From a virus, in IMG/VR virus record IMGVR_UViG_3300038829_000263, positions 70,111-134,110 of that record: a stretch of 64,000 nt of DNA; one strand, given 5' to 3'. Shown piece after piece: positions 15,723-35,469 of this stretch. Position 1 is the first letter of the stretch. Every line of letters starts with the position of its first letter. Below the pieces are notes generated by a model, which saw nothing but the letters and a program-made list of their open reading frames with translations, ran no database searches and had not been told where the DNA came from. A program made the position numbers and the translations under genes.

Positions 15723-15889
15723 TGGGCCGCGCCTCGCGAACGAAGCGGGAGAGGCGGGCGGCGAGGGCCGTGCCTCGGCTGCGTCCTCCGCCGATTGCGC
15801 CACTCGTCGGGCCGGATGGCCAGCCCCAGGGATTCGTGGTCGTAGATGAGGCCGGCCGGGCTACCGTCATCCCGGCGAGGAGGAAGTAG
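15722..15889 (+). CDS. Small basic hypothetical protein (55 aa, not in the ORF track)
   Basis: TAG/GTG 1-nt overlaps at both ends; it fills the gap exactly. Confidence 0.5.
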   Translation: MGRASRTKRERRAARAVPRLRPPPIAPLVGPDGQPQGFVVVDEAGRATVIPARRK

Positions 15890-17730
15890 TGGTCGCGCCA
15901 TCGTTGCTAGTCGCCAAGATCGGCACAACGCCTCTTCGCGTGTTCAGGATGACGGGAGGGACCACCCTCACGCAGGTCGGCAGCGACGTGACCGGCTTGG
16001 CGTATGCCCCTGCCACCAACCACTGGGGATCTAACCAGGTCGTCGAGTACCGCGGCCGGCTCTACTTCGTCCACACCGGCGCGGGCAGCAACGCGATCGT
16101 GTCCAGGTACAACCCGGTCACAGATGCCTGGGACATCGTATTCACGTCCCCCAACACGGCCACCGGGCAAGGCTCCGGCAAGCGCACCGGCCTGTTCATC
16201 GCCAACTTCCCCCCGCGGATGTTCTTCTTCGACTTCCAGGACGGGGTGGGAGACCGCCTCTTCTACACCGATGACGGCACCTCGTGGACCTCGGGCGCGA
16301 CGATCTCGACGACCGCCCAACTAGGTCGGGCCGTGTTGTACCGCAACAAGCTGTACATCCCCCGAACGTCGAACGTAATGGACATCGTCGATCCCGCGCT
16401 GAATACGATCACGCGCATCAGCAACGTTGCTGCCTCCTCCCCGAACTCGGGCGGCATGTGCGTGTTCCGCAACCGCCTCTACCAGGTCGCGCAAGGGGGC
16501 TCCTCCGGCGACGACCAAGTCCTCTACGAGTTCACGGGCGGAGCGTGGGTCTCGCGCGCCACGCTCCTCGCCGTTTCGAGTGGAGCCGGCACCCCGGACG
16601 AGTGCTACGCCTTGGCCCCGATCGGCAACACGAAGATGGTGGCGATCACCATCGGGTCCACGGACGGCACGAACACGACGCGCGGCTCGCGCGCCTTCGA
16701 CCTTACGCCGACCGGGCCCACGTCGTTCACCGTGACGGACGTCACGACCCCTGTCATCCCATCCGGCCTGCGCGCCCCGCAGACGGCGACCTCGCAGCGC
16801 TGGACGACCTTCGTGGACAACCAGACGAGCCCCGGGTCCCCTGCCGTGTTCTTCTGGCACCTGAGCAGCGCCACGGCGGGCACGTATTCGTACTACGAGT
16901 ACGTGGATTCTTCGACTGAGCTATCGCCGGGTTCGGCTGGGCCCAACCAGGACGTCGTCGTCCCGTACCTGCCCAACGGAGGCGGGGACCGCATCTGGGA
17001 TGGGTCGGGATCCCTCGATGCCATCGCCACGAACGCCGTCGCCTCGCCGACCCTCGGCCACTCGCGGTTGACTGCGCTCTGCTCGGGCGACACGGCCGGG
17101 GCGGGCGGCATGCGTACGTCGGTGCGCCTGGCGACGATCGCGGCCCTCCCGGCGAACACGCCGGCTGGGGCCGGCGTCGGCAAGACCCTCACCGGGAACG
17201 CTAACGGGGCGCTCTCGGTGGACGGGACAGCGGTGGTCAACGGCGACCGCATCCTCGTGAAGGATGAAGTCGCGGCGGCGAACAACGGCATCTATACGGT
17301 GACCGACCAGGGAAGCGGTGGCGCGCCTTTCATCCTCACGCGCGCGACCGACTTCGACCAGGTCTCCGCGACCGAAGTCGCGGCCGGGGCCTGGGTCCGT
17401 GTCACGGCCGGCGGGACCCTCTCGAACACGTTCTGGCAGATGAACCAGACGGCCACGATCACCATCGAGACGACGGCGCTCACCTGGGCCCAGCTCACGA
17501 CGAGGTTCCTGCGCTTCTGGTACTCGCCCAACGAGAACGCGAACCTCGTCCAGGGGACGCTGGGCGGCACTCCTTCGGGCCAGGCCGGACAGCTCACGAG
17601 GAACGTGAACACGATCGAGGGGGTCATCGCTGACGGGGCGACCACCTTCACGTTCGACTGGAATGCCGGGGGAGACGGGCAGCAGAACGGGGCCCCGGAG
17701 GGCGCCGCTCTACGGATCGGGACGACGTAG
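15889..17730 (+). CDS. Putative receptor-binding/fibre protein: beta-propeller-like N-terminus plus a shared structural domain
   Basis: Propeller-like repeats (YRGRLY, YRNKLY, FRNRLY, DDGTSW) and an SVRLAT...GDRILVK...NGIY...LTRATDFD domain. Confidence 0.7.
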   Translation: MVAPSLLVAKIGTTPLRVFRMTGGTTLTQVGSDVTGLAYAPATNHWGSNQVVEYRGRLYFVHTGAGSNAIVSRYNPVTDAWDIVFTSPNTATGQGSGKRTGLFIANFPPRMFFFDFQDGVGDRLFYTDDGTSWTSGATISTTAQLGRAVLYRNKLYIPRTSNVMDIVDPALNTITRISNVAASSPNSGGMCVFRNRLYQVAQGGSSGDDQVLYEFTGGAWVSRATLLAVSSGAGTPDECYALAPIGNTKMVAITIGSTDGTNTTRGSRAFDLTPTGPTSFTVTDVTTPVIPSGLRAPQTATSQRWTTFVDNQTSPGSPAVFFWHLSSATAGTYSYYEYVDSSTELSPGSAGPNQDVVVPYLPNGGGDRIWDGSGSLDAIATNAVASPTLGHSRLTALCSGDTAGAGGMRTSVRLATIAALPANTPAGAGVGKTLTGNANGALSVDGTAVVNGDRILVKDEVAAANNGIYTVTDQGSGGAPFILTRATDFDQVSATEVAAGAWVRVTAGGTLSNTFWQMNQTATITIETTALTWAQLTTRFLRFWYSPNENANLVQGTLGGTPSGQAGQLTRNVNTIEGVIADGATTFTFDWNAGGDGQQNGAPEGAALRIGTT

Positions 17731-18690
17731 CAGGGAGAGGGCGTGGCCGACTATCTCGGGCCAATTCAAGCGCTCGGCGTCCCGCTGCCGTCCGGGCAGT
17801 ACCTGGGGCCGGCGCAGTTCATCTCGGCCCCCCTCATCGGGGAGCAGTTCCTCGGGCCCATCCAGGCTTTCCCGTGCCCGTTGCTCACCGAGCAATTCCT
17901 CGGGCCGGCGCAGTTCACGACGGTCGCCATCGTGTCCCCGCAGCATCTCTCTCCGATACAATTCTTCTTCCTGGAGGTTCGCGTGGCAGGCATCAAGGGC
18001 AAGCAGATCGCGACAGGGGCCGATGGCATCGCCACCGCGAACCTGGTCGATGGCGTCCTCTCCGCGAACGCGGCCGGCCGGGCCAAGATCGCGACCGGCT
18101 TCTTCGACCTGGCGACCGTGAACGACAAGTTCGCCGCGGCGAGCATCGCGCTCGACCGCCTGGCGGAGGCGGTCATCCAGGCGGACGGCGGCCAGGCGTT
18201 CACGGCCGACCAGTCGATGGGCGGCTTCAAGCTCACGAACCTGGGCACGCCCACCGGCGCCCTCGACGCCACGAACAAGCAGTACGTCGACGGCGTCGCC
18301 TCGGGCATCGACTGGAAGCAGTCGGTCCGCCTGGCGACCGCCGCTGCCCTGCCGGCGAACACCCCCGCAGGCTCCGGCGTCGGCAAGACCCTCACGGCCA
18401 ACGCGAACGGGGCCCTGTCGGTGGATGGCGTCGCCGTCGCCGTCGCTGATCGCGTCCTCGTGAAGAACGAGGCGGCCGGGGCCAACAACGGCATCTACAC
18501 CGTCACGGCCACAGGGTCGGCCGGGGCGCCGTACGTGCTGACTCGCGCGACCGACTTCGACCAGGACGCCGAGGTCACGGCCGGCGCCGCCACCTTCGCC
18601 ACCGAGGGGAGCACGCAGGCCGACACGGGCTGGGTCCTCATCACGAACGATCCCATCGTGGTCGACACGACGGCCCTCTCGTTCACGCAG
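17119..18690 (+). repeat. Duplicated ~125-aa domain (approx. 17119-17493 and 18322-18690) in two adjacent genes
   Basis: Near-identical protein segments SVRLAT.AALPANTPAG.GVGKTLT.NANGALSVDG...NNGIYTVT...LTRATDFDQ. Confidence 0.85.
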
Positions 18691-19131
18691 TTCACGGGGA
18701 CCGGCGCCCTCACGTTCGGGATGCCGGTCGCCGTCGGCACGGCCAACGCCGAAGGCGTGGCGACTACCGTCTCGCGCTCCGACCACGTGCACGACGCCCC
18801 GGCGCCTTCGACCCTGCGCAAGAGCGTGGCGCCCACGGTCACGAGCGGCAACTTCTCCTCTACGGGCATCACGGCCGGCTTCACCCCGGCCCTGGGCGGC
18901 CACGTGCGCGTGGTCGTGAACGGCGTGGAGTACCCCGTGGGCGACGGCAACCGCCTGGACCTCGGCGGCTTCACGAACAACGTCGTGGCGTACTTCTCGG
19001 CCGACGGCGGTGCGACCGCGAAGGCGATGAGCGCGATCGTCTCCACGGACACGCTCTACTGGAACGGCACGAACGCCGGCTTCAACCTGGCGGTCACCGA
19101 CGAGGTCTCCATCCACGGCGAGGCGTTCTAG
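17743..19131 (+). CDS. Putative fibre/decoration protein with N-terminal 16-aa repeats
   Basis: Five [YFH]L[GS]PxQ repeats, a DATNKQYVD fibre motif and the duplicated domain; alternative start GTG 17983. Confidence 0.75.
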   Translation: MADYLGPIQALGVPLPSGQYLGPAQFISAPLIGEQFLGPIQAFPCPLLTEQFLGPAQFTTVAIVSPQHLSPIQFFFLEVRVAGIKGKQIATGADGIATANLVDGVLSANAAGRAKIATGFFDLATVNDKFAAASIALDRLAEAVIQADGGQAFTADQSMGGFKLTNLGTPTGALDATNKQYVDGVASGIDWKQSVRLATAAALPANTPAGSGVGKTLTANANGALSVDGVAVAVADRVLVKNEAAGANNGIYTVTATGSAGAPYVLTRATDFDQDAEVTAGAATFATEGSTQADTGWVLITNDPIVVDTTALSFTQFTGTGALTFGMPVAVGTANAEGVATTVSRSDHVHDAPAPSTLRKSVAPTVTSGNFSSTGITAGFTPALGGHVRVVVNGVEYPVGDGNRLDLGGFTNNVVAYFSADGGATAKAMSAIVSTDTLYWNGTNAGFNLAVTDEVSIHGEAF

Positions 19132-19143
19132 TAGGAGGGGCCG

Positions 19144-19695
19144 GTGGGGTCAGGACCGATCGTGGACCAGGTGCCGGAGGAGACGCCGACGAGGCGCGCG
19201 CCGCGTCGTCGCCTGGACCTCCGGCAGATCGGCGGCCTCCCGCCGGTCTACTCCATCCCGCTGGCCGTCTCCCACGTCTCCCAGGGCGTCCGTGGTCTCG
19301 TTCAGCCCACGTCCGGGATGCACGTGGGCTACCTGCTAGAGGAGGACGGCGTCGTCGGGTTCCAGGGCGTCGTGTGCCCCGACTTCGAGTTCACGGCGGC
19401 CATCCTCCGGGTCGAGTTCACATCCGTGGACACGCTCCCGGAGGATCCGTCGTGCTCGGTCTCGGCGCTCTACCTCGACAGGGCCGGGAAGGTGCACAAG
19501 CAGTTCACGCCGCCGCTCGTCGCCTGCGGGGACCTGGCCGAGTTCCACATTCCCGCCGGGCGCCTGGCGCGCTCGCGCGTTCTGACCATCGCCACGGGCT
19601 TCGCGCTCACGTCGTTCATGCCCCAGGAGGGCGATGAGCCTGCGCGCAAGAGGCCGATCCTCTTCCGCGGCGCCTGGCTGGAGTTCCCGGAGTGA
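19144..19695 (+). CDS. Hypothetical protein
   Basis: AGGAGG RBS and GC3-biased codons. Confidence 0.65.
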   Translation: MGSGPIVDQVPEETPTRRAPRRRLDLRQIGGLPPVYSIPLAVSHVSQGVRGLVQPTSGMHVGYLLEEDGVVGFQGVVCPDFEFTAAILRVEFTSVDTLPEDPSCSVSALYLDRAGKVHKQFTPPLVACGDLAEFHIPAGRLARSRVLTIATGFALTSFMPQEGDEPARKRPILFRGAWLEFPE

Positions 19696-20072
19696 CGACA
19701 CGGCCACAGCTAAAGCAGCTAGGGCTCTTTCTGGGGCGCCTCATCGGCGCGGACTTCAACACGACGGCCGACCAGGCTATCCCCATAGGCGCGGGGCTCT
19801 ACGTGCCGCGGCGGATCATCGTCACGAACCCGAGCACGAGCCTGACCCTCGCGGCGGGCGGTATCTACACGGGGGCCGGCAAGACGGGCACGATCGTCGT
19901 TCCCGCGGCGCAGGTCTACTCGGCCCTGACCGGCGCCACGAAGTTTCTGGACTTGACGCTCAACTCGCTAACCGACGTTCTCAGCGCGTCGCAGTTGCTC
20001 CTCTCCCTGACGGTGGCCCAGGGCGCGGCCGCGACGGGCGACGTCTATCTGTTCGGAGACGTTCTGCAGTAG
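19692..20072 (+). CDS. Hypothetical beta-rich protein, possibly virion-associated
   Basis: GTGA overlap; Ala/Thr/Gly-rich beta composition. Confidence 0.65.
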   Translation: MTTRPQLKQLGLFLGRLIGADFNTTADQAIPIGAGLYVPRRIIVTNPSTSLTLAAGGIYTGAGKTGTIVVPAAQVYSALTGATKFLDLTLNSLTDVLSASQLLLSLTVAQGAAATGDVYLFGDVLQ

Positions 20073-20168
20073 CCCCCCTGCCGCCTGTCCGGCATACTGG
20101 TGAGGCGGTGCGCGGCGAGTGGATCCGCCTCCCTCGCCGCGCACCGCCAAGCCTCTGGGAGGGACCCG

Positions 20169-21137
20169 GTGACGACGGCGACGCTCTACCGCGATGCGGA
20201 CTACGGGGCCCTGGCCATCTACCCTGGGGCCAGCGGCCTCGTCACGATCGACCACGGGTTCCTGGCGGAGGACTTCGAAGCGGCCCTGTCCGTCCTCGAG
20301 CGCCACGGCAGGGGCGAGACGCAGCCCGGCCCGGGCGCGTGCCACTGGCGCCTGGAGAGCGCGCATCCCCTGCAGGTCATGGCCTCCGTCGATGCCGCGC
20401 TGCGCCTGCGCGGGTACGCCGACGACGCCCTTGGCGAACGCGCGATCCTGCGCGTCACGTCCCAGGAGGCCGCCCGGCCTGATTTCCCGGCGCCGGGAAA
20501 GTGGCCGTCCGGGGCCGACCTCGACGCACACGTTCGGGCGCTCATCACCCCAGCCCTGGCTGAGGCCGCGGGCGCACCCGTGCCTCAAGTGGCCGTGGCC
20601 GTCATGCCCCGCCCGAACTCGCAGGAGTCCGCCCCCTGGGCCCGCGCCCGGGCCCTGCTACCGGCCGGCGATGCCAAGGTCGTCCAGGAGCGCCTCCGGG
20701 CCGCCCTGGTCGGTCCCGTGCGCGAGATCCTGCGCCGGGCCACGGTGACCGCCTGCTCGCCCACCCTGCCCCATGGCCGGCTCCTGGCGGAGATCGCCCT
20801 CGCCATCCCCCGGGCCCTCTTGAACGAGTGGGAGAGCGCCATCCTCCCCGCCTTCCGGCCGGCCACGCACGGGTGGCGCCAGGTCTGGCTCAAGCGCGGC
20901 GAGAAGGACGTCCCGGAGTCCTTGCTCTCCCGCGCCCGCGAGGGCGGGGCGATCGTGGGCGAGGCCCGACAGGGCCCGCGCGCTCTGGGCCTGCGCATCC
21001 CCTCGGCCATGCCCGGGGACCACCTGGCGGACACGGCCTTCTCCGAGCGGCTCTGCTGGCTGACCGAGGCCCTGGGGGTGGAGCTCGTCGGCATCGACCC
21101 CTACCAGGACTGGACCCCCGCCGCTGCCCACGAGTAG
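20169..21137 (+). CDS. Hypothetical protein
   Basis: GGAGG RBS before GTG 20169; GC3 bias. Confidence 0.6.
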   Translation: MTTATLYRDADYGALAIYPGASGLVTIDHGFLAEDFEAALSVLERHGRGETQPGPGACHWRLESAHPLQVMASVDAALRLRGYADDALGERAILRVTSQEAARPDFPAPGKWPSGADLDAHVRALITPALAEAAGAPVPQVAVAVMPRPNSQESAPWARARALLPAGDAKVVQERLRAALVGPVREILRRATVTACSPTLPHGRLLAEIALAIPRALLNEWESAILPAFRPATHGWRQVWLKRGEKDVPESLLSRAREGGAIVGEARQGPRALGLRIPSAMPGDHLADTAFSERLCWLTEALGVELVGIDPYQDWTPAAAHE

Positions 21138-21146
21138 CATGGGCGC

Positions 21147-24100
21147 ATGCCCATGCAGCCGCAAAACGAGACCTCCCGCGGCAGCCTTGCCTCCGTGACC
21201 CCGGGGTTCCTCGGGGCGACGCAGCGTGGGCGGCTCTCGGAGTTCGGCTGCGCGGGGTGCGGCTTCGCCATGCCGCGCTACCCCGGACGCTACCCCGCGG
21301 CCTGCCCCAAGTGCGGCGGGACGGTCGAGCGCCGCCAGGTGGCCGAGGCCGAGAAGATCCCCGGCGGGAAGGCGGCCGGCATGAAGCCGTCAGACTTCGA
21401 CCCCGGGGCGCTCCTCGCCGGCATCCGGGTCGAGATGGAGCACACGAGCGACGCGGCCCTGGCGATGGAGATCGCGATGGACCACCTGGCGGAGGACCCG
21501 GCCTACTACGACAAGCTCGCCACGATCCACCCGCCCGAGGAGGAGCCGGCCGAAGGCGGCGCGGGCTCGGGGTTCGTCGGCGCCCCGGACTACCCCTCCT
21601 GGCAAGGCGAGGGCGCCCCGATTCCGCTCGCCTCGCGCGCGTGCCGCATCCAGGCCCTCATCGAGGCCGGTGCGCAGGGGCGGTACCCCTACAACGCGGA
21701 CCCCGACCGCTGCTCCCGCCCGCGCCGGCTCACGGCCGCCCAGGTCGAGGAGCTGTGCCCTGGCGGTGCGGCCGGCCTGCGGATGTTCCTCGAGCAGGGG
21801 AACCCCGAGAGCCGCTACTTCCGCATCGAGTCCCCGGCCGCCCCGGTGCTCATCTGCGAGTTCCACGTCGGCGGCGACCTCGTGATCTATGCGACCGTCG
21901 ACCCCGTGACTTACCTGGGCTTCGACCCGCGCCAGGAGCTCGTCTCGGAGTCCTCGCGCTGGCCGGGCACGGTCGACGTGCACGACCCCGGCCACGACAT
22001 CATCGCGCGTATAGCCGGCGACAAGTTCCAGCTCGAGGACGTGAACACCTGGAAGGTCCACGGCTCTTGGCCGCTGTCCGACCTGATGAAGGACGACCCG
22101 ATCAGGAAGGGCATCCGCCTGGCCGGGATCTTCCTGGACGCCTTCGTCGTCGAGCAGATCCTCCAGGCCGCCGGCGGCCGCTACCGCGAGTGGGCCAACC
22201 GCATCGTGGGCGCCATCCACGCGGCCGATGATGCGGCGCTCCGCCGGGGCCTGCGCGGCATGCGCGAGGGCGTGGACGAGGAGGTCATCAGGGCGTCGAA
22301 GGGCCTCGGTCTCTCGCGCGACGACCTCCCGCAGATCGACTCGGACAAGATCGACGACTTCCTGGAGTGGCTGCGCGTCCAGGGCATCGGCGTCTACCCG
22401 ACCGAGGCCACGGCGCGCCTTCTCCTGCCGTCCCAGGGCGAGCTGGAGTCCGACAAGATCGCCGCGATGGCGAAGGAGCCCGAGAAGCTCACGAAGGGGA
22501 AGATCATCACGTCGGCCGACGGCTATGTGCTCGATGGCCATCATCGCTGGGCGGCCTACGTCGAGGTCTACCCCGAAGGCAACATGCCCGTCTGGCAAGT
22601 CCAGCTCGACATCGTCACCCTCATCAACCTGGCGAAGCTGTTCCCAGGGGCGAAGGTGCGCGACATCTCCGGCAAGCGCGTGGCCGAGGCCGCTGACTCC
22701 AAGATCGCGACGCGCCTTTCCTCGCTGGCCGCGCGACCGATGTGCCAGTTCAAGGGGCCTACCTGCGTCGGGCGCGCCTGGTGGAAGATGAACACGCCGC
22801 GCCCGTGGGGCGAGTTCGCCTGCTCGTCGTGCCTGACCGTCCTGGAGAAGGAAGCGGGCCTGGCGGAGGCCGTGAACCACGACATCGTGACGCGCGTCGT
22901 GAGCGCGATGCGCCAGGCCAACTTGCAGCCGCGCTTCGAGGGCGGCATCGCTCCGACGCCCGACGTCGGCTACGTGCGCGCCATGGCCCTGGGCAACGTG
23001 GCGCTCGAGCTCGTGTTCGCGGGCGCGCGCCTCGTCTCCGCTTCGATCGTCCCCCCGGACGCCCCTGAGGACGACAAGGCTCAGATCCGCGCCGCGGTGA
23101 TGGGCGTCCTCCCGAGCATGGCCGACATCGACTTGACCGAGAGCGCCGAGATGCCCTCGGAGCGCGAGCTGTCGGACCTGGCGACCGGCGCGACGGCAGT
23201 CACCAAGAGCGGCTCCGCGATCGAGTTCCGCTTCCCGCACGGCCGCTACGTTGAGATGGCCCACGACGCGATCCATGCGAAGTGGCCGCGCCTGGGCCTC
23301 CAGTTCTCGCAGTCGAAGAACGGGAACCCGGTCCTGATCGTCTCTCCGCCCTACGTGCCTCCGGTGCGCCGCCCGGACGCCCCGTTCTCGCTCGAGTTCT
23401 ACGACGTGAGCCACGAGGGCGACGAAGCCCCCATCCTCCGTGACATCGCGGCCGCCGGCGGCAAGGTCGTGGGGCGGCACCGCTCCGGCGAGGAACTGTC
23501 GGTCGACATCTCCGCCCCGGATGGCGAGGACGCGTTCATGGCGAAGTTCAAGCGCACGCGCTCGGCCTCGCGCCTGAACGAGGCGCGCCTGGAGGAGACG
23601 CGCTGGTCGCGCGCGGACCTGAACCGCCGGTTCAAGGGGCAGTACCACAACAAGGGCTTCGAGCTGCTCTACGGCGATGACCAGGCCGATGCCGGCGGCG
23701 GGCGCAAGCAGCCGCGCTACGCTGTCATCTCGACCTTCAAGTGGGTCGAGGCCCCGGTGAAGGGCGACTCCATCATGGACTACATGGACGAGATCGAGGC
23801 CGAGGCCCGCGACGCGATGATGGGGATGCGCGTCGTGGACGTGGGCGACGACTGGGCCGTGGTCGACATCGACTGGCGTGGGCTGGAGGAGGGCAACATG
23901 CCGGACGACTACACTCCCTCCCAGGCCCGCGCCGCGATCCGCGGGATCATGGCCGCGCAGGAGAAGGGCGTCATCCCTGTCACGACCCAGGCCGTCGCGG
24001 CTTTCGGGTTCGGCAACCCGCGCTACACGGATCTCGCGCGCCAGGTGCTCTCGCGCCTCCAGGACCAGGGCTACGTCAGCTCCGACCGGGACCAGGGCTG

Positions 24101-25859
24101 GCATCTCTACCAGTCGGCGAAGTACTGGCTGGCGGAGGCCGGCGGGAAGATCGTCCCCGGGGAAGGTCCCCAGGCCGGTGGCGGCGCCTGCCGCGCGGTC
24201 GGCGGCTTCCGGTTCGAGCTGGGCAAGTCGAAGAAGCGGAAGCCGCGGAAGGACGTGCAGCGCGCGATCCAGAACCGGCTCAACGCGAAGCGCGGGCTCG
24301 CGTCGCGCATCTCGGCCGCGAAGAAGTGGCACCAGAGCTCCCAGGGCCGGCGCTACCACCGCGACCTCGGCCGCTACCTCCGCCAGGAGTCGTACTGGCC
24401 CCTGTTCGAGCGCGAGACGGAGTTCACGAACCGCTACCAGGCCCTCGGCCTCGCGGAGCCCGACCCGGCCACGATGTGCCTGGGCGCGTGTGAGGGCACG
24501 GGCATGGTCCCGGTGAACTACGCCCCTGCGAAGGCGGGTGGGATCGGCCCCGATCCCGACCTGACCTACAAGGCGGCCTGGGAAGCGGCCGAGGCCGCTA
24601 GCCCGGCGGAGGACGGATGGCACTTCGTGAAGTGCCTGGGCTGCGGCGGCTCGGGGAAGGCGACGCGCCTGAACGAGAGCCATCTGCCCCCGCTGGTAGG
24701 GTTGGACCGGGCTCGCCTGGCCGTCGAGGTGGAGCGCCGCTCGGGTCTGGACCGCGGACCGGCCGACGAGCGGCGGGTCCTCGCGGCCATCGCCGCGGTA
24801 GAAGCCGGCGACCTGAACAACCCTGACGCCGCCCTCAAGCGCCTGGTCTACGAGCTCTGGTTCTCGCTCAAGGACAACCCACTGCCTGGACTGCGCGAGG
24901 ACGTGGGCGAGCGCACGGTCGATGACCGCTTCGACGAGTTCCTGCGCAAGCTCATCACGATCGAGTCGACGGACGTGCTGCAGGACGTCAACTTCACCGA
25001 CGACGGCGGCATCTACCTCTTCTTCGACCCCTCGCTCTGCGGGCCCGACCTGGACGAGATCCTGATGGCGCTCCGTCAGGCCCAGGGCAGCGAGGGCGTC
25101 GAGATCGTCGGCACTCCCGACGAAGAGGACAGCGACTGGTGGGTGATCTTCTCCCCGCCGCCGACCGACTCGGCCGCGTGCGTCCCTGGCCAGGAGACAC
25201 TGGACCAGCAGGCGGCGGGGGACGAGGTCCAGCCGGTCGATGGCGCGCCCGCGCCCCTGGCGAGCATGGCCGTGATGAAGCAGAACTCGGTCGACCGCCT
25301 GGCCATGAGCGTCGACATCCCGGCCCTGATGCAGGGCATCGATGGCGCCGAGGCGCAGAACGAGGCGACCGAGCGGGTCTACTACCGCATCAAGGTCGAC
25401 GGCAAGTACGTGGGTTCGCCCACGAACACCCGCACGGCGAACCCGAACCTCGCGGCGACCTGGGGGACGGACGAGCGCGACCAGGCCGAGAAGCTGGCCA
25501 AGCTCATCCCCGGCGCCGTCGTCGAGCCCTATCTCTACAAGAGCATGCTCAGCGAGTGCGGCGCGCACGGCCCTGTCATCCCCGAGGCGCTCCAGCCCCG
25601 CGAGGACGGCGTCGTCGTGCTCCTGTGGTCGGCCGTCGAGAGCCGCGTGCCCAGGTTCAAGGGCATTGCCTCGGGCGGCGCCGACCTTCACGGTCTCCGT
25701 GAGGCCGCTGCGCAGGGGAAGGGCACCCTGTTCCTCGTGCGTGCTCTGGGGGCCAGGGCCGCACGTGATACGATTCGTACTGGCAAGGGCCTGCACGAGA
25801 TCGCACCCAACGTCCTGACGAACGAGGTCGGCCTGGCGCACGTCCTCGCCGCGGAGTGA
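21147..25859 (+). CDS. Giant multidomain protein (Zn ribbon, DUF5661-like, ParB/Srx-like, wHTH-like, DnaJ-type Zn finger-like); putative internal head polyprotein
   Basis: GIRVEMEHT...EIAMDHLAEDPAYYDKL; LPSQ...IITSADGYVLDGHHRWAA; CLGACEGTG...CLGCGGSG; [LIVM]xE motifs at module boundaries. Confidence 0.75.
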   Translation: MPMQPQNETSRGSLASVTPGFLGATQRGRLSEFGCAGCGFAMPRYPGRYPAACPKCGGTVERRQVAEAEKIPGGKAAGMKPSDFDPGALLAGIRVEMEHTSDAALAMEIAMDHLAEDPAYYDKLATIHPPEEEPAEGGAGSGFVGAPDYPSWQGEGAPIPLASRACRIQALIEAGAQGRYPYNADPDRCSRPRRLTAAQVEELCPGGAAGLRMFLEQGNPESRYFRIESPAAPVLICEFHVGGDLVIYATVDPVTYLGFDPRQELVSESSRWPGTVDVHDPGHDIIARIAGDKFQLEDVNTWKVHGSWPLSDLMKDDPIRKGIRLAGIFLDAFVVEQILQAAGGRYREWANRIVGAIHAADDAALRRGLRGMREGVDEEVIRASKGLGLSRDDLPQIDSDKIDDFLEWLRVQGIGVYPTEATARLLLPSQGELESDKIAAMAKEPEKLTKGKIITSADGYVLDGHHRWAAYVEVYPEGNMPVWQVQLDIVTLINLAKLFPGAKVRDISGKRVAEAADSKIATRLSSLAARPMCQFKGPTCVGRAWWKMNTPRPWGEFACSSCLTVLEKEAGLAEAVNHDIVTRVVSAMRQANLQPRFEGGIAPTPDVGYVRAMALGNVALELVFAGARLVSASIVPPDAPEDDKAQIRAAVMGVLPSMADIDLTESAEMPSERELSDLATGATAVTKSGSAIEFRFPHGRYVEMAHDAIHAKWPRLGLQFSQSKNGNPVLIVSPPYVPPVRRPDAPFSLEFYDVSHEGDEAPILRDIAAAGGKVVGRHRSGEELSVDISAPDGEDAFMAKFKRTRSASRLNEARLEETRWSRADLNRRFKGQYHNKGFELLYGDDQADAGGGRKQPRYAVISTFKWVEAPVKGDSIMDYMDEIEAEARDAMMGMRVVDVGDDWAVVDIDWRGLEEGNMPDDYTPSQARAAIRGIMAAQEKGVIPVTTQAVAAFGFGNPRYTDLARQVLSRLQDQGYVSSDRDQGWHLYQSAKYWLAEAGGKIVPGEGPQAGGGACRAVGGFRFELGKSKKRKPRKDVQRAIQNRLNAKRGLASRISAAKKWHQSSQGRRYHRDLGRYLRQESYWPLFERETEFTNRYQALGLAEPDPATMCLGACEGTGMVPVNYAPAKAGGIGPDPDLTYKAAWEAAEAASPAEDGWHFVKCLGCGGSGKATRLNESHLPPLVGLDRARLAVEVERRSGLDRGPADERRVLAAIAAVEAGDLNNPDAALKRLVYELWFSLKDNPLPGLREDVGERTVDDRFDEFLRKLITIESTDVLQDVNFTDDGGIYLFFDPSLCGPDLDEILMALRQAQGSEGVEIVGTPDEEDSDWWVIFSPPPTDSAACVPGQETLDQQAAGDEVQPVDGAPAPLASMAVMKQNSVDRLAMSVDIPALMQGIDGAEAQNEATERVYYRIKVDGKYVGSPTNTRTANPNLAATWGTDERDQAEKLAKLIPGAVVEPYLYKSMLSECGAHGPVIPEALQPREDGVVVLLWSAVESRVPRFKGIASGGADLHGLREAAAQGKGTLFLVRALGARAARDTIRTGKGLHEIAPNVLTNEVGLAHVLAAE

Positions 25860-28800
25860 TACCCATGCTCGAGTCGCTCAGCCTGGCCATCCGGATCTAC
25901 CGCCACCTGGCCGAGAGCACGCAGGAGGTGGCGCCCGGCGACGTGTGGGAGTGGGCCGCGGTCCGCAAGGCCCTGCTCTCCGCCCCGCACGGCCCCGGGC
26001 TCATCAAGCACCTGGAGACCCTGGGCGAGTCCGCGCGCGAGGGCTCTCTCGCCTGGCTGCGCTCGATGGCGCCGTTCGCCCCCATGGGCCGCGTCGTCCG
26101 CCTCCCCGGCGTGGCCGAGGCGCGGGCGTTCCTGACGAAGGTCCGGGCCGAGGGCATGCTGGCCGAGCCCATGGGCGAAACGTGCGTGCAGGTCCACGAC
26201 GTGGACGAGGAGGAGATCCGCCGCGCCGTCCAGGCCGCGCAGGGCGTGCTCGTCGAGACCGCGGCCTCGGCCTACAAGGCGTTCGACCACGACCTGTTCC
26301 AGAACATGCTGGACGACGGCAACTCCGTCGAGCGCGTCGAGTCCGCCATCCTCCGCGCGATCGAGTCCCGCGGCGCGGGCACGCTCGACGAGTCGTTCGT
26401 GATCGTGGGCCAGTACGCCCCCGAGGAGAAGTTCATCGGCCGCCTGGAGCGGTTCGCCGACCTCCGCCCGCGCCAGGTGCTCGGCATGGACGTGGAGCTG
26501 GCCGAAGCGCTCTACGTGGCCGGCCGCCTCCCGGCGGCGGCGCGGCCGATCGTGGCGCGCGTGCTCCACCTGACGGAGGAGACGGAGAGCGCGCCCGTGG
26601 GCGACACGGCCGCCTCCCCGGCCCAGGCCGGCACCCCGCTCGACAAGGGCGGCGTCGCGAAGGACCAGCCCGACGTCTCGGCCGGCGCCCCGGCGCAGTC
26701 GCAGGACGGCGAGAAGAAGGAAGCCGAGCAGCCGACCGACATGCGGCCCGACGAGCCCTCGGACGAGATCACCCTCCCCGACGGGACCATCGTGCCCGAG
26801 GACGTGCTGCGCCAGGCCCTGGCCCGCATGCTCGTCGTCCTCTCGACCCAGCTCGAGCAGGGCGTCGGGACAAACGGCCAGCCGAACGGCAACGGCGAGG
26901 AGGAAGGCGAAGAGGGCGAGGAAGGGGACGCGGAGGCCGACGAAGGGGAAGACGAGGACGCCGGCGCGACGCCCGCGCCCGCCGCGCCCCCGGCCGAGAA
27001 GCCCGCGGCCCAGGCGGCCGCCCAGACCGAAGGGACGATCGGTCCCAGCTTCAAGACCGGGGACGAGGTGCGACTCCCGGACGGCCGGACGGGCCGTGTC
27101 ATCACGTCCGTGTTCAACGACGTCATCGTCAGGCTCGCGGACGGCAGCGAGTGGCGTGGTCCCGGCAGCACCGTCCTCAAGCTGGCCCAGACCGAGGCCG
27201 TCGTGGCCGAGGGAACGCCGATGTCCGACATGCTCAACCGCGAGTTCCCGCCTGGCAGCGTCTGGGCGGACGGCGCGGGCGAGCGCGCCCGGATCACGGG
27301 GAACGGCTCGGACGGGCTGGTGTACTACGTCGAGTTCACGCGCCTCGACCGCCTGTTCATGGGATGGTCGCACGACTACCGCACGGCGGATCAGATGATC
27401 GCCGCGAAGAAGTCGGGCGAGATCCGCATGGTCCGCAGCGAGTCCGTCGTGAAGGTCACAGAGGGCCGCAAGCACCTGATGGCGGCCGTGGCCGACCCGG
27501 CCAAGTTCGAGGTCGGCTCGTTCAAGGTCGTGGCGATCGGCGAGGGCGTCCAGGCCCAGGTCGGGCGCCTGGCGGCGACGAAGCGAGAGCGCATCCAGTC
27601 GCTCGTGTTCGACAAGGCCAAGTTCACCGAGGCCACGGCCCAGGAGTGGATCACGCGCTACCGGGCGAAGACGGTCGCCCCGGCCCGGCGGCCGGAGCTG
27701 ACCGAAGCCGCCAGCCCCAACCTGAATGACCCCCTGGCGCTCTCGCGCGGGATCTTCGCGAACGCGAAGGAGCACTACGGCGCCACGCGCTCCTACCTGG
27801 GCGGCAGTCGCGGCATGCACCAGCTCCAGATCTGGTTTCCCAACAACGAGAGCGCACGGCGCTTCGTCGCAGAGATGGGCGGCGAGTGGGGTCCCAACGT
27901 CCGCATCGAAGAGTCGCTGATGAAGGACGCCAGCGTGTTCGTCGAGTGGTACAGCCCGATGTTCGAGGGCCAGCGCCTGGACGAGGACTGGTTCACGAAC
28001 ATGCGCGAGAGCGCGAAGGCGTTCTACGAGACGGCGTCCAAGGACGCATCCAGCGCCGCTGAGCAGCTCGGAACGAAGCCCACGTCGGCGAAGTCGTGGC
28101 CTGACATGCTGGCGCGTGCCGAGCGCCTGGGTGACCACTGCTCCGTCTCGCTCCGCCAGGCGCTCGTGATGAACCGGGAGCTCGTGCAGGCGGCGAAGGG
28201 CGCCGATGCGCTGGCTGGGGTGGAGGAGCGCACGAGGCGGTCCGTGGCCGAGGCCGAGGAGCCGGGCGACGCCGAGGAGAAGGCCGTCGGTGCTGCGGCC
28301 TGGGAGGACGCGCGCGCGCAGGTCAGCGCGATGAAGGCCGCCGTGTTCAAGCTGGTCACGGACGACCTCGTGAAGATCGAGGCCGTGTCGAAGGCCCTCG
28401 ACGCGAAGAAGGCGATGCGCGCGGCCGTCAAGCTCCGCGAGACCTTCGAGGAGCTCCACGACGAGATGAAGAAGGCGCTCGGTTCCTTCGAGGACGCCCA
28501 CGACATGTTCGTGGCCGAGACGGGCGCGGAGAAGCCGGCCGAGGAGGCCCCCGCGGCCGAAGCCCCCGCCCCGGCTCCTGCAGCACCGGCTCCCGCCGCC
28601 CCTGCAGCGGAAGTCCCTGCTCCCGCGGCCCCGGCCCCTGCGCCGGCCGCGGAGGAGTCGAGGACCGACCAGGCCGTCCGGCGCCTGACCGGGTCGAACG
28701 TCGCGCGCCGCGTCGCGGAAGGCGTGATGATGGGCGAGGTCGTGGACGCGATGCGGGCCGAGTGCTCGGACCTGGGCCTGTCCGTGCGGGAGCTGGCCGA

Positions 28801-29092
28801 GGTCCACGAGCGCATCTCCGGCGTCGAGGCCCTGGCGGCCCAGCGCGTGTACAAGCTCTCCCTGTCCGAGGCCGACCGCGAGCTCGTGTCCGCCGTGAGC
28901 CAGGCGCCCACCGACGCCCCCGGGCGGTTCGCGCAGGCCACGGCCGAAGGCCGCGAGGCCAAGGTCTACGAGGCCGAGCTGGAGGAGGTCATCGGGGCCC
29001 TCCGGTGCCTGGGCGAGGTCGAGCATGGGCTCCTGGCGGCGGAGCTGTCGCGGGCGATGCGGGGGATGGCGCTGACCGCCGGGCGCGTGTAG
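25856..29092 (+). CDS. Large multidomain/coiled-coil protein; putative prohead core or internal head protein
   Basis: GTGA overlap; acidic and Pro/Ala linkers, SH3-like segments (FKTGDEVRLPDGRTGRV) and many [LIVM]xE[AGS] motifs. Confidence 0.7.
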   Translation: MIPMLESLSLAIRIYRHLAESTQEVAPGDVWEWAAVRKALLSAPHGPGLIKHLETLGESAREGSLAWLRSMAPFAPMGRVVRLPGVAEARAFLTKVRAEGMLAEPMGETCVQVHDVDEEEIRRAVQAAQGVLVETAASAYKAFDHDLFQNMLDDGNSVERVESAILRAIESRGAGTLDESFVIVGQYAPEEKFIGRLERFADLRPRQVLGMDVELAEALYVAGRLPAAARPIVARVLHLTEETESAPVGDTAASPAQAGTPLDKGGVAKDQPDVSAGAPAQSQDGEKKEAEQPTDMRPDEPSDEITLPDGTIVPEDVLRQALARMLVVLSTQLEQGVGTNGQPNGNGEEEGEEGEEGDAEADEGEDEDAGATPAPAAPPAEKPAAQAAAQTEGTIGPSFKTGDEVRLPDGRTGRVITSVFNDVIVRLADGSEWRGPGSTVLKLAQTEAVVAEGTPMSDMLNREFPPGSVWADGAGERARITGNGSDGLVYYVEFTRLDRLFMGWSHDYRTADQMIAAKKSGEIRMVRSESVVKVTEGRKHLMAAVADPAKFEVGSFKVVAIGEGVQAQVGRLAATKRERIQSLVFDKAKFTEATAQEWITRYRAKTVAPARRPELTEAASPNLNDPLALSRGIFANAKEHYGATRSYLGGSRGMHQLQIWFPNNESARRFVAEMGGEWGPNVRIEESLMKDASVFVEWYSPMFEGQRLDEDWFTNMRESAKAFYETASKDASSAAEQLGTKPTSAKSWPDMLARAERLGDHCSVSLRQALVMNRELVQAAKGADALAGVEERTRRSVAEAEEPGDAEEKAVGAAAWEDARAQVSAMKAAVFKLVTDDLVKIEAVSKALDAKKAMRAAVKLRETFEELHDEMKKALGSFEDAHDMFVAETGAEKPAEEAPAAEAPAPAPAAPAPAAPAAEVPAPAAPAPAPAAEESRTDQAVRRLTGSNVARRVAEGVMMGEVVDAMRAECSDLGLSVRELAEVHERISGVEALAAQRVYKLSLSEADRELVSAVSQAPTDAPGRFAQATAEGREAKVYEAELEEVIGALRCLGEVEHGLLAAELSRAMRGMALTAGRV

Positions 29093-29139
29093 ACGACGCC
29101 AGGGCGGTTTGGTACCCTTCCCCACAGGAATAGGGCAGG

Positions 29140-29472
29140 ATGCAGAGCACGAAGTCCGCGTACTACACAGCGCCCGCCATCGCGGCTCGCATCGTGGAGT
29201 TCAAGAACAACGGCTCGCTCCCGCCCTACGTGGTCGTGGAGAACCTGGGCACAACCGCGTCCGCCTCGGTGATCTACCAGGAGAGCGACGACGGCTCCAC
29301 CTGGACGGACATCGCCTCCACGACGACGACGGTGAACCCTGGCACGTCGAACGGCCAGAAGATCACGTCGACCAAGGCTCACCTGGCGCTCAAGGCCGGC
29401 GGGAACGTCCCGCTACTCGTGAGCGTCCATCGCACGGTGAACGGGTCTCCGGCCAGCCTCGGGGCGGCCTAG
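29140..29472 (+). CDS. Small beta-sandwich protein, putative virion component
   Basis: QESDDGSTWTD motif; TGGTACCCT extended -10 upstream. Confidence 0.7.
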   Translation: MQSTKSAYYTAPAIAARIVEFKNNGSLPPYVVVENLGTTASASVIYQESDDGSTWTDIASTTTTVNPGTSNGQKITSTKAHLALKAGGNVPLLVSVHRTVNGSPASLGAA

Positions 29473-29493
29473 TTTCAACAGGAGGGTGGCCAC

Positions 29494-30531
29494 ATGGCCG
29501 AGATCGGCTACAGCTTCAACGGGATCGGCCTCGCCGAGGCGCAGGACAGGGTCAACGAGCACCGGACGGGCGTCCCGAGCAAGGGCCTGATGGCGCTCCT
29601 GCAGCGCACCATCGGCATCCGCCGGACGTCCAAGGTCGGCGTCGCGAACACCGGCCGCGCGGCGGCCCACGTGCGCCTGCGGCACCAGGGCCTCGAGCGG
29701 ACCATCGCGGCCGAGGCCCTGGCGGCCCTGAACGTGCCGGCGACGAACCGCTTCGTCGGGCGGCTCCAGTTCGGCGCGATCACGCCGGGCTCGATCGTCG
29801 TCACCGAGGCCGGCGCCCTGGCCGACATCGTGGACGACGGCCTCGGGAAGCTCTACGACATCGGGTTCGTGGGCGTCGCGGCCAACTTCCGCGGGACGAT
29901 CAACTACGTCACGGGCGCCCTGGACGTGACCTTCGGCGCGGCCTTCACGGCGCCCGTCACGATCGCCTACCGGCACTCCGACTACGTGGACTTCGCCTCC
30001 GCGAACCAGATCGTGTCCGGCCCCGCGGGCGCGCTCCCCTACACCCTCCAGCTCCCCTTCGGGCGCGTGGTGCCGGGCAGCGTGTCGCTCACCGACGGCG
30101 TCTCCACCTGGGTGGACGACGGCAAGGGCAACATGATCCAGGCGAACCTGGCGCGCGGCACGATCGACTACGCCGCCGGCATCGTCGTCCTGAACACGGG
30201 CCCGGCCGTCGCGGCCCCGCTGACCGCCGCGTCGGTGATGCAGTACAACCCGTTCGCCGCGCTCGTGGCCGCGGGCGGTGGCCAGAAGCTGCTCGACATC
30301 TTCTCCCAGATCCCCGAGCTCACGAACGGGCCCTGGGCGGCGGGCGTGGACAGCGAGACCCGGCTCGGCCTCGTGGGCGAGTCGAACGTCCTGGCCCTGG
30401 CCACGGACCTCGTGGTCCAGTGGTCGCACTACGGCGAGGAGCCGTACCGGGTGGACGAGGTGTTCTCGGGCTTCCCGCCCGGCGGCTTCTCGAACGACCC
30501 CAACGTGGACCAGGCGGTCGCCCACCTGTAA
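29494..30531 (+). CDS. Putative virion protein with two PGS..DDG.G..GTI[ND]Y modules
   Basis: AGGAGG RBS; the module is shared with capsid, sheath and baseplate proteins. Confidence 0.75.
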   Translation: MAEIGYSFNGIGLAEAQDRVNEHRTGVPSKGLMALLQRTIGIRRTSKVGVANTGRAAAHVRLRHQGLERTIAAEALAALNVPATNRFVGRLQFGAITPGSIVVTEAGALADIVDDGLGKLYDIGFVGVAANFRGTINYVTGALDVTFGAAFTAPVTIAYRHSDYVDFASANQIVSGPAGALPYTLQLPFGRVVPGSVSLTDGVSTWVDDGKGNMIQANLARGTIDYAAGIVVLNTGPAVAAPLTAASVMQYNPFAALVAAGGGQKLLDIFSQIPELTNGPWAAGVDSETRLGLVGESNVLALATDLVVQWSHYGEEPYRVDEVFSGFPPGGFSNDPNVDQAVAHL

Positions 30532-30594
30532 GGGCGACCGGCCCCGTACGGGGCTTGATCGGGGCACCGTCGGGCACCGCACGAAGGGGGAGCC

Positions 30595-31488
30595 ATGGCG
30601 ATCGTCAGGACAACGCGCGACGAGGTACTGCGCCTCGGGCCTGGGGCCTCCGGGGAGGAGTCCCGGCTCTCGGGGGCGTCCCTCGTGTTCGCCGACATCC
30701 CGGCGCTCGGCAACGTGCACGCCTACGTGCATCGCCCGACGGAGCTCAAGGGTGCGGCGGGGCTGTTCGGCGTGGAGCTATCCGACGGCGGCGCGGCCGC
30801 CGGCGCCACGCAGCCCTACCGCTTCGAGCTGGCGCAGCCCCCGGCGGACTTCACCGTCGGGGGCGCGACCTTCGCCCGGCCCAGGACGCGCCAGCGGGTG
30901 CTCGTGGCCGACGGCCGCGGGCACTTCTGGGTCAACCAGGAGGTCCCGGCCTTCGCGGCCTTCGCTCCTGTCCAGGACGGGGCGCTCGTCCAGTGCGGCC
31001 GCAAGGAGCACATGCTCCCGATGCCGGGAAACAACGTCCCGGCCGGCGCGACCTTCCTCCTCCGCTTCCGCTGGGTGGCCACGGCGGTCGTGGCCGAGGT
31101 CCAGGCGTCCCCGCCCATGACGCCTGGCGTGCCCGACGGGATACGGCGCTCCTTCCGCGGCCAGCTCGGGAACCTGACGCCCAACTCGCGCATCGCGCCT
31201 GGGTCGGTCGTGTTCACGGCCACGGTCACCGCCCTGGCCCTCACGATCCGGGACGACGGCCTGGGGCGCCTCGTCGGCATCCGACGCGACGCGAACGGCA
31301 ACGTCACGGCCACGGCCGATGGCCTCATCAACTACCTCACCGGGCAGTGGTCGCTCGACTTCGGCCCCCCGCCCCCGGCGACGGCGATCGTCCCGGACGC
31401 CGCGACCAACATCTCCGCCTCCTACGAGCACTCCTGCCCCTACCTCCCGCTGGACGTGCATCTGGAGTGGGACGTTCTGCTCCAGTAA
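30595..31488 (+). CDS. Putative virion protein with one PGS..DDG.G..INYLTG module
   Basis: GGGGAG RBS and the shared module. Confidence 0.75.
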   Translation: MAIVRTTRDEVLRLGPGASGEESRLSGASLVFADIPALGNVHAYVHRPTELKGAAGLFGVELSDGGAAAGATQPYRFELAQPPADFTVGGATFARPRTRQRVLVADGRGHFWVNQEVPAFAAFAPVQDGALVQCGRKEHMLPMPGNNVPAGATFLLRFRWVATAVVAEVQASPPMTPGVPDGIRRSFRGQLGNLTPNSRIAPGSVVFTATVTALALTIRDDGLGRLVGIRRDANGNVTATADGLINYLTGQWSLDFGPPPPATAIVPDAATNISASYEHSCPYLPLDVHLEWDVLLQ

Positions 31489-31498
31489 GGGCTTACTG

Positions 31499-31945
31499 AT
31501 GGCTGTCCGTGTCCCCCTGCCGCGCTACGCCGACCTCCCCAAGGTCGTGCTGTTCCATCGCGCGCACCCGACGGACCCGACGGTCATCCTCCAGCTACCG
31601 AACGAGGACCGGACGGACTCGGAGACGTACCGCCTGGACCTCGAGCGCGAGGGCGACCGCGGGTGGATCGAGGGGCTTCCCGGCGGCCGGGACGTGCTCT
31701 ACAAGCTGACGATGGAGATGCACATCGCCTACGAGCCGGCGACCGGCGGCATGCGCGCCATCGCGGACCTGGACGAGCCCACCATGCGCCAGCAGGAGAT
31801 CGCGCTCGCGCGCCTGGAGGCGTCCCGCACGGCCAACGGCGCCCAGCGCTCGACGCTCCGCTCCCGGCGCCACGTTCCCCCACCGTCGACGTTCCGCCTG
31901 GGCCTCATGCTCGGGCAGGAGCCGCTCAGGAGGGCACCCCTGTGA
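31499..31945 (+). CDS. Hypothetical protein
   Basis: GC3-biased ORF whose stop overlaps the protease start. Confidence 0.65.
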   Translation: MAVRVPLPRYADLPKVVLFHRAHPTDPTVILQLPNEDRTDSETYRLDLEREGDRGWIEGLPGGRDVLYKLTMEMHIAYEPATGGMRAIADLDEPTMRQQEIALARLEASRTANGAQRSTLRSRRHVPPPSTFRLGLMLGQEPLRRAPL

Positions 31946-35430: not shown

Positions 35431-35469
35431 CCGAGGCGTCGAGCCTACAACGACGCGCAGGAGAGCAAT

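Follow-up and report, generated by a model that had tools for sequence, protein, structure and literature searches.

Introduction

Polyvalent proteins combine 2–15 unrelated domains in a single polypeptide and occur in phages and in conjugative and other mobile elements (PMC5512222). Iyer, Burroughs, Anand, de Souza, and Aravind proposed in 2017 that they are packaged and delivered with the DNA, and that metallopeptidases embedded in the chain resolve them into units (PMC5512222). In phage T4, the prohead protease gp21 cuts after Glu in the sequence L/I-X-E, first observed at a Glu-Ala bond; it shreds the core proteins and trims the internal proteins (IPI–III) and Alt, which are first loaded into the core and some of which (IPI and Alt) are ejected (PMC9026906). 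In the giant phages phiKZ, 201phi2-1, and SPN3US, a diverged gp21-type protease cuts many head proteins after Glu, some of them at several sites, and a protein bolus enters the host (PMC10052503, PMC5694885); the gp21 homologues of giant phages cut at A/S/G-X-E and mostly remove N-terminal propeptides (PMC10052503). Here we describe a modular protein of 1570 amino acids encoded by an uncultured phage with a T4-type head from a groundwater metagenome, in a window of 64,000 nucleotides that corresponds to bases 70111–134110 of the 143,219-bp IMG/VR record IMGVR_UViG_3300038829_000263 (GC content ~70%). The joints between the modules of this protein carry a motif resembling the gp21 recognition sequence, and we favor, with a probability of about 0.6, the reading that it is a packaged internal head protein of the polyvalent type that would be diced by the prohead protease. 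The idea has precedents in polyvalent proteins, in the T4 internal proteins with Alt, and in the head proteins that giant phages cleave.

Like polyvalent proteins, the protein has many shuffled domains in one chain, is encoded by a late/virion gene, contains a domain of the ParB/sulfiredoxin (Srx) superfamily, and has a 2H domain in a relative. Unlike them, it is built on a conserved backbone of five modules, its ParB module is nearer to the ParBc_2 and serine kinase types than to the DdrB-like ParB of the earlier study (PMC5512222), and its processing would depend on the prohead protease acting at short tags in the joints. Searches of Pfam, PHROGs, and NCBIfam at the thresholds used revealed no embedded zincin-like metallopeptidase (MPTase) and no MuF, portal, or other anchor of the kinds described before, and a diverged domain could escape within the ~40% of the chain that has neither homologues nor a confident model. 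The presence of an S77 protease and a Gp23-type capsid protein, together with sites of the form hydrophobic-x-Glu that often precede Ala, recalls the T4 gp21 substrates IPI–III, Alt, gp22, gp67, and gp68. Those substrates are either small proteins of a single function, from which a short targeting peptide is removed, or scaffolds destined for shredding, whereas here one chain would give about a dozen folded modules; in addition, the P3 position admits Val and Met besides Leu and Ile, and no N-terminal targeting sequence was identified. The giant phages differ in their motif and in cuts that mostly take off N-terminal propeptides, and this 143-kb phage shows no sign of an inner body; the cultured-phage records that were matched aligned only over the ParB-like stretch, with no comparison aimed at these giant phages.

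The Motif Is Placed at Module Joints

The open reading frame (ORF) of 1570 codons has a GC content at third codon positions (GC3) of 0.94 and no competing frame, and a public collection holds an identical protein of 1568 residues. An exhaustive phmmer search of residues 1–1200 against 1.8 billion representatives returned 6,932 matches that fall into discrete blocks (residues 7–62, 64/68–130, 154–268, 374/378–508/514, 516–570/584, 813–915, 996/998–1080, and 1088/1090–1173), and a local re-search revealed further modules at residues 1252–1400 and 1470/1480–1560. Together with two AlphaFold models built on family alignments (residues 1–1200 and residues 998–1570), these matches define at least 10 separable modules (Table 1). 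The ORF is real and modular, as a sequence-only reading of the window had proposed. The same reading had described a polyprotein of unrelated domains, and a description as unrelated domains only is wrong: 32 representatives of 429–1734 residues share a collinear backbone of zinc ribbon, module C, basic module, and module E, joined in some by the C-terminal module, and these five form a conserved family. Variable inserts (ParB/Srx, DUF5661, zinc fingers, and a 2H enzyme) lie between the backbone modules. For the ParB, DUF5661, and zinc finger modules, the stand-alone homologues cover exactly the stretches between sites.

The motif [LIVM]xE, in which Glu would occupy the P1 position, occurs 31 times in the protein, and all 17 tetrapeptides that had been listed as cleavage sites, chosen from these 31, are present. 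Eleven of the 17 lie at module borders defined by homology and/or AlphaFold (E67, E268, E374, E514, E812, E915, E997, E1088, E1177, E1251, and E1470), and three could not be assigned, as they lie where homologues are missing and model confidence is low (E574, E665, and E817). The remaining three, E32, E173, and E1519, were rejected as joint sites since they are located inside conserved, confidently folded modules; E32 precedes the zinc ribbon's first Cys by two residues, at a stretch that reads M-S-D in relatives. In the model of residues 998–1570, E1088, E1177, E1251, E1470, and E1480 are positioned in linkers with predicted local distance difference test (pLDDT) values <50. The model of residues 1–1200 places E268, E374, and E514 in similar linkers (pLDDT <50) and E67 in a confidence dip (~66) between two modules. 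Nine Glu residues, E173 and E1519 among them, are inside confident helices or strands (E116, E173, E202, E238, E1104, E1236, E1304, E1519, and E1551). When the module edges were defined by homology and clustered objectively, 9 of 16 were within 5 residues of an [LIVM]xE (3.2 expected at random, P ~0.001) and six control motifs reached only 1–4 of the 16. The proposed coincidence of domain boundaries with sites holds at these nine edges, and some joints have no site.

The same placement is found throughout the family. In the 32 multi-module relatives, a site is present within −12 to +3 residues of 58 of 106 module starts (23.0 ± 4.1 in shuffles) and within −3 to +12 residues of 72 of 117 module ends (26.0 ± 4.4 in shuffles), whereas motifs with Asp, Gln, or Lys/Arg at P1 are below expectation at these joints and [AGST]xE is flat. 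The motif is kept at the same joints while the adjacent linker sequence varies, a site following module C in 26 of 32 relatives and the zinc ribbon in 18 of 26, and preceding module E in 19 of 32. Among 141 junction sites, P3 is Leu in 53, Val in 49, Ile in 24, and Met in 15, and the residue after the Glu (P1′) is Ala, Gly, or Ser in 58%, compared with a background of 25%. The rule anticipated from T4 fits: the [LIVM]-x-E of the joints, after which Ala, Gly, or Ser mostly comes next, matches the published L/I-X-E, and the small residue at P1′ matches the Glu-Ala bond that gp21 cuts (PMC9026906). Placement at joints is a stronger signal than the density of the motif within the protein. As a separate observation, an [LIVM]xE occurs among the first 14 residues of 14 of 22 relatives, with basic residues or Thr/Ser after it (MDE|TSR, LDE|RKR), which may represent a very short propeptide.

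Motif Frequencies in the Head Block and Elsewhere

The controls of the analysis were composition-preserving shuffles, motifs with Asp, Gln, or Lys/Arg at P1, the reversed motif, and other proteins of the genome. Within the 1570-residue protein itself, [LIVM]xE is found 31 times against 23.7 expected (z = 1.8) and [LIVM]xE[AGST] 14 times against 7.3 (z = 2.6); the strict pattern derived from the neighboring protease extension, [LVMI][TAS]E[AGST], gives 6 against 1.6 (P ~0.006). The head block as a whole (20100–36918) has 68 occurrences of [LIVM]xE[AGST] where 27.7 are expected (z = 8.8, 2.45-fold), compared with 36 against 34.4 in the tail proteins (ratio 1.05) and 82 against 70.8 in the remaining genome (ratio 1.16), and the form with Asp at P1 is flat everywhere. 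The contrast in motif density between head and tail that had been proposed as a check is seen for the block, whereas for the single protein the excess is only modest.

The enrichment was reproduced when homologues from 16 independent relative loci were pooled. The homologues of the 1570-residue protein hold 144 occurrences against 63.4 expected (z = 11.3), with 50 against 54.7 for the Asp control, and those of giant protein 2 and of the 345-residue upstream partner (10 ORFs scored) hold 221 against 81.9 (z = 15.8) and 83 against 31.8 (z = 9.7), respectively. The pooled homologues of the 110-residue protein encoded further downstream have none, with 3.5 expected (z = −2.0).

The 1570-residue protein is depleted in [LIVM]xD[AGST] (1 against 7.3 expected, z = −2.4) alongside its enrichment in the Glu form. 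Since Asp at P1 blocks processing in T4, though it leaves targeting intact, there may have been selection against non-cleavable Asp look-alikes.

The ParB/Srx Module and Other Modules

Residues 375–514 correspond to the full length of stand-alone homologues of 142–170 residues. The top Foldseek matches of this stretch are sulfiredoxin and ParB-N (probability 0.9–1.0), and the top eight matches by VIA are all of the ParB/Srx type with Z values of 5.3–7.2, the next row being unrelated with a Z of 4.3. Among them are sulfiredoxin (Z = 7.2, 82 residues aligned, root mean square deviation 3.5), PadC (6.8), KorB (6.5), ParB-N (6.5), and a serine kinase (6.0). Two independent aligners thus agree, and the predicted structure clearly adopts the ParB/Srx fold. 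Profile matches of the module are weak and are to serine kinase 5x0j and Pfam ParBc_2; within a set of 21 homologues, 10 match ParBc_2 and only 1 matches ddrB-ParB, at an E value of 0.019. Three residues of the DGHHRW sequence, which is a GxxR-type nucleotide-binding motif, are invariant in all 21 (D92, G93, and R96). The homologue in phage Det7 is a stand-alone gene of 149 codons in a region that appears non-structural. A “structural protein” label on ParB-module homologues in related records was discounted as annotation only.

The N-terminal zinc ribbon, the DUF5661-like and ParB/Srx-like domains, and the very basic segment had each been recognized from the sequence, and all are confirmed as units. 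The zinc ribbon is modeled with pLDDT values of 77–90 at residues 31–62 and a dip at residues 61–70. For DUF5661, 32 matches start at query residues 64–68, many of them stand-alone proteins of 93–116 residues. Module C has pLDDT values >90, which fall below 50 from residue 267 on, and the basic module is modeled as three helices (pLDDT 87–96). A unit described earlier as a DnaJ-like zinc finger is indeed a zinc finger with two CxxCxGxG motifs, flanked on both sides by low-pLDDT linkers and with stand-alone homologues of 89–142 residues that map to residues 1088–1175; the likeness to DnaJ lies in the motif, with no Pfam match, and homology is not supported. A winged helix-turn-helix-like unit that had also been suggested corresponds to a low-confidence model, which we do not accept as homology.

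Module E contains a ferredoxin-like core at residues 1255–1342, for which VIA found only generic fold matches to the periplasmic domains of GspL/M and PilO (Z ~8). The C-terminal module has a sub-threshold match to Smr (E = 0.057). Foldseek searches of residues 998–1570 against the PDB and BFVD gave nothing below an E value of 0.001, searches of residues 1252–1570 and 139–374 against the ESM Atlas gave no match, and neither did the backbone profile against PDB sequences.

Relatives and Conserved Gene Order

A word-indexed search recovered no full-length relative other than the protein itself. No relatives were found in 185,579 species genomes, and in 50,697 phage records only the ParB module was matched, with 409 cultured-phage records aligning solely over the ParB-like stretch, so that no cultured relative is known. 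Two IMG/VR and 14 metagenome loci, 16 in total, encode the family. Over the part that each locus covers, its genes are arranged as in the window, namely the 345-residue partner, the homologue of the 1570-residue protein, giant protein 2, and the genes for proteins of 110, 345, and ~297 residues. A homologue of the S77 protease is encoded downstream in 5 of the 5 loci that reach that far, and 2 reach the capsid gene. Module content, which it had been suggested to compare among relatives, varies around the backbone in proteins of ~430–1734 residues, consistent with accretion of domains at the joints. A 2H/LigT phosphoesterase is present in one relative only (P0011). In five relatives (L006, L009, L010, L013, and L017) the ParB-like module is located in giant protein 2 and not in the homologue of the 1570-residue protein, which indicates that modules move between carriers.

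Proposed Processing and Alternative Explanations

We read the 1570-residue protein as a packaged polyvalent-type internal head protein because its architecture and context fit the polyvalent class, no embedded peptidase was found, and its joints bear the signature of the capsid protease. It would be made late, alongside two other site-rich proteins, and be built into the prohead core. The S77 protease would then cut after the Glu of [L/V/I/M]-x-E before a small residue, in flexible joints, to yield ~10–13 pieces of 6–26 kDa, of which the ones remaining with the DNA would pass into the host upon infection. The backbone of such a precursor would comprise the zinc ribbon, module C, the basic module, which is DNA-binding-like, module E, and the C-terminal module, and the inserted cargo would be DUF5661, the ParB/Srx domain, which is NTPase- or nuclease-like, the zinc fingers, and several further units. 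Modularity, the conserved backbone family, selective placement and conservation of the motif at joints, and strict synteny with the protease and capsid genes are direct observations; packaging, cleavage, the choice of sites, and what becomes of the pieces and what they do are inferred.

Several results weigh against this reading. The enrichment within the protein (z = 2.6) is about equal to that in the helical tape measure protein (z = 2.9), so density in this protein cannot carry the claim by itself. Approximately half of the 31 [LIVM]xE occurrences sit inside folded modules, and the motif alone therefore cannot define a cut. The joint from DUF5661 to module C and the one after module E have no site. 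The module edges in the relatives were defined by alignment to the 1570-residue protein, so that a conserved residue pattern at the ends of domains could add to the signal. The specificity of the protease is presumed by analogy with T4, and the S77 enzymes of giant phages prefer Ala, Ser, or Gly at P3 (PMC10052503). A capsid-targeting sequence was not identified in the 1570-residue protein, in which the position of the relatives' N-terminal site reads QNE|TSR, and no clear sites were seen on looking at the flanks of the ParB-like module in the giant protein 2 of relatives.

Three rival explanations were weighed. The motif could be an artefact of chance or composition, as Leu, Val, Ala, and Glu abound in the proteins of a genome with 70% GC, where LxE is a common sequence; composition alone predicts 24 of the 31 occurrences, and the original 17 were picked from these 31 by eye. 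The shuffles, the Asp, Gln, and reversed controls, the tail and early proteins, and the 16 independent relatives all oppose this explanation, which is largely refuted and can be given very little weight. It is also conceivable that the gene encodes a core or scaffold-type protein of the prohead, diced like T4 gp22, gp67, and gp68, with pieces that are mostly expelled and cuts that serve disposal. The position upstream of the protease is where T4 keeps its core genes, the many fragments into which T4 core proteins are cut exit the head (PMC9026906), the conservation of the backbone in all relatives suggests a role in assembly, and site density is still higher in the protease extension and in giant protein 2, as it would be in a scaffold. 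However, the sites flank folded modules without shredding them, the pI 11.4 basic module looks suited to remaining with the DNA, and the inserts are variable, have stand-alone homologues, and are enzyme-like or ligand-binding (ParB/Srx, zinc fingers, and 2H in a relative), which would be unexpected for a pure scaffold, making this role unlikely.

Alternatively, the protein may be a multi-domain virion or polyvalent protein that remains uncleaved or is trimmed only at its termini, the joint motif being a structural feature of domain ends and linkers or a docking motif. Such proteins exist, since some polyvalent proteins are packaged unprocessed, for example the N4 virion RNA polymerase (PMC5512222), and SPN3US leaves ~80% of its head proteins uncut despite motifs (PMC10052503). 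The reversed control E-x-[LIVM] is also somewhat raised at module ends (51 against 25.8). We nevertheless consider an intact protein quite improbable, as one and the same tripeptide marks the borders of non-homologous modules and is also found in linkers with no other conservation, a Glu is needed, with Asp and Gln depleted at these positions, P1′ prefers small residues, and the enrichment is limited to the head-block proteins beside the S77 protease. A bolder proposal than the packaged internal head protein, and one that we hold only tentatively, is that two or three carrier proteins serve a clade of phages with T4-type heads as a plug-and-play platform for capsid cargo, in which any domain placed between [L/V/I/M]-x-E|small tags would be packaged with the carrier, cut free by the prohead protease, and delivered to the host. 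The joint tags and the backbone would then constitute a general code for loading and release, with free exchange of modules, the ParB-like one for instance, from carrier to carrier.

Should the cuts of the proposed packaged head protein prove real, a tailed phage would be using a natural polyprotein strategy, with about a dozen proteins delivered into the host from one late gene at DNA entry and the existing capsid-maturation protease doubling as the release enzyme. It would join polyvalent proteins with gp21-type head processing and explain how resolution occurs without a peptidase of their own. The joint tag could serve as a readable marker for packaged effectors, possibly counter-defence proteins, in uncultured phages, and it hints at how foreign proteins might be designed for loading into T4-type capsids. 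No function is known for the backbone modules and most of the inserts, which makes the family a reservoir of new domains for phage-host interaction.

Genome Setting and Neighboring Head-block Proteins

The late genes form a single long rightward block across the window, which also includes sheath, tape measure, and baseplate genes. The gene for the 1570-residue protein is placed among the late/virion genes, with the fibre/decoration-like genes before it and those for the protease and capsid protein after it.

Table 1. Features of the window and modules of the 1570-residue protein
Feature	Residues	Position in window	Strand	Remarks
Portal		2516–4447	+	rightward block
DNA helicase gene		10315–12549		phrog_1967, E 5.6e-85; between portal and fibre-like genes, inside structural block
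Two fibre/decoration-like genes		15889–19131	+	rightward block
Upstream partner, 345 aa		20100–21137	+	site-rich; syntenic in 13 loci
Modular head-block protein, 1570 aa	1–1570	21147–25859	+	single ORF, GC3 0.94
N-terminal zinc ribbon (backbone)	7–67	21165–21347	+	homologous in 26 relatives; ends at VAE|A (E67)
DUF5661 insert	68–130	21348–21536	+	Pfam PF18905 E 5.5e-8; pLDDT >95
Module C (backbone)	154–268	21606–21950	+	conserved in ~30 relatives; ends at VSE|S (E268)
ParB/Srx-fold module (predicted), DGHHRW	375–514	22269–22688	+	between MRE|G (E374) and VAE|A (E514)
Small four-Cys unit	515–574	22689–22868	+	homologous stretch in P0013, P0021, L007; no confident fold prediction
Module between LNE|A (E812) and LEE|G (E915)	813–915	23583–23891	+	169-aa protein P0077 aligns to exactly 813–915
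Very basic helical module, pI 11.4 (backbone)	998–1088	24138–24410	+	conserved in 33 relatives; between LAE|A (E997) and LFE|R (E1088)
Zinc finger, two CxxCxGxG motifs	1089–1177	24411–24677	+	17 homologues; ends at LNE|S (E1177)
Module E (backbone)	1252–1470	24900–25556	+	after LRE|D (E1251); conserved in 32 relatives; pLDDT 90–97
C-terminal alpha/beta module (backbone)	1471–1570	25557–25856	+	after LSE|C (E1470); in P0009, P0010, P0019, P0021, L005, L007; pLDDT 90–97
Giant protein 2, 1078 aa, modular		25856–29092	+	shares [LIVM]xE[AGST] motif
Three small conserved genes (110 aa, 345 aa, ~297 aa)				between giant protein 2 and protease
S77 (T4 gp21-type) prohead protease with ~900-aa site-dense extension		31942–35430	+	PF03420, phrog_207
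Gp23-type major capsid protein		35470–36918	+	PF07068 E 1.3e-15

The gp21-like protease that had been noticed at 31942 is supported by a Pfam match (PF03420, E = 2.7e-7, 30.7 bits with a cut-off of 27) and by phrog_207; a phmmer comparison of the protease domain with PDB sequences gave no gp21 match, and the S77 assignment rests on Pfam and PHROGs. Its ORF begins with a GTG codon overlapping the stop codon of the preceding gene, with AGGAGG upstream. The extension of ~900 residues has 15 occurrences of [LVMI][TAS]E[AGST] where 1.5 are expected (z = 11), and the whole looks like a protease-scaffold fusion that would be built for shredding. One relative locus (L005) has a shorter protease ORF, of 759 aa, and downstream of it a separate ORF of 524 aa. 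An ORF of the same locus at 18736–20310, considered as its capsid gene, was rejected, as it has no similarity to the capsid protein of the window and only a weak match (E = 7e-7) to the C-terminal extension of the protease.

Giant protein 2 holds 21 occurrences of [LIVM]xE[AGST] against 8.3 expected (z = 4.9) and has homologues of up to 1688 residues. The upstream 345-residue partner has no family match and may be a third substrate or carrier. In the N-terminal arm of the capsid protein (35470–35952), E49 ([IV][LM]E) and E83 ([IL]xE, followed by TSRA) are invariant in three relatives; both are good candidates for a maturation cut and could be used to calibrate the specificity of the protease. 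The tape measure protein (50758–52749) has 13 occurrences of [LIVM]xE[AGST] against 6.0 expected, which may reflect a bias of helical proteins or processing of the tape measure. The 110-residue protein (29140–29472) is encoded by the most conserved gene of the block, with 53–64% identity in 11 of 12 relative loci and 48% in the other (L015).

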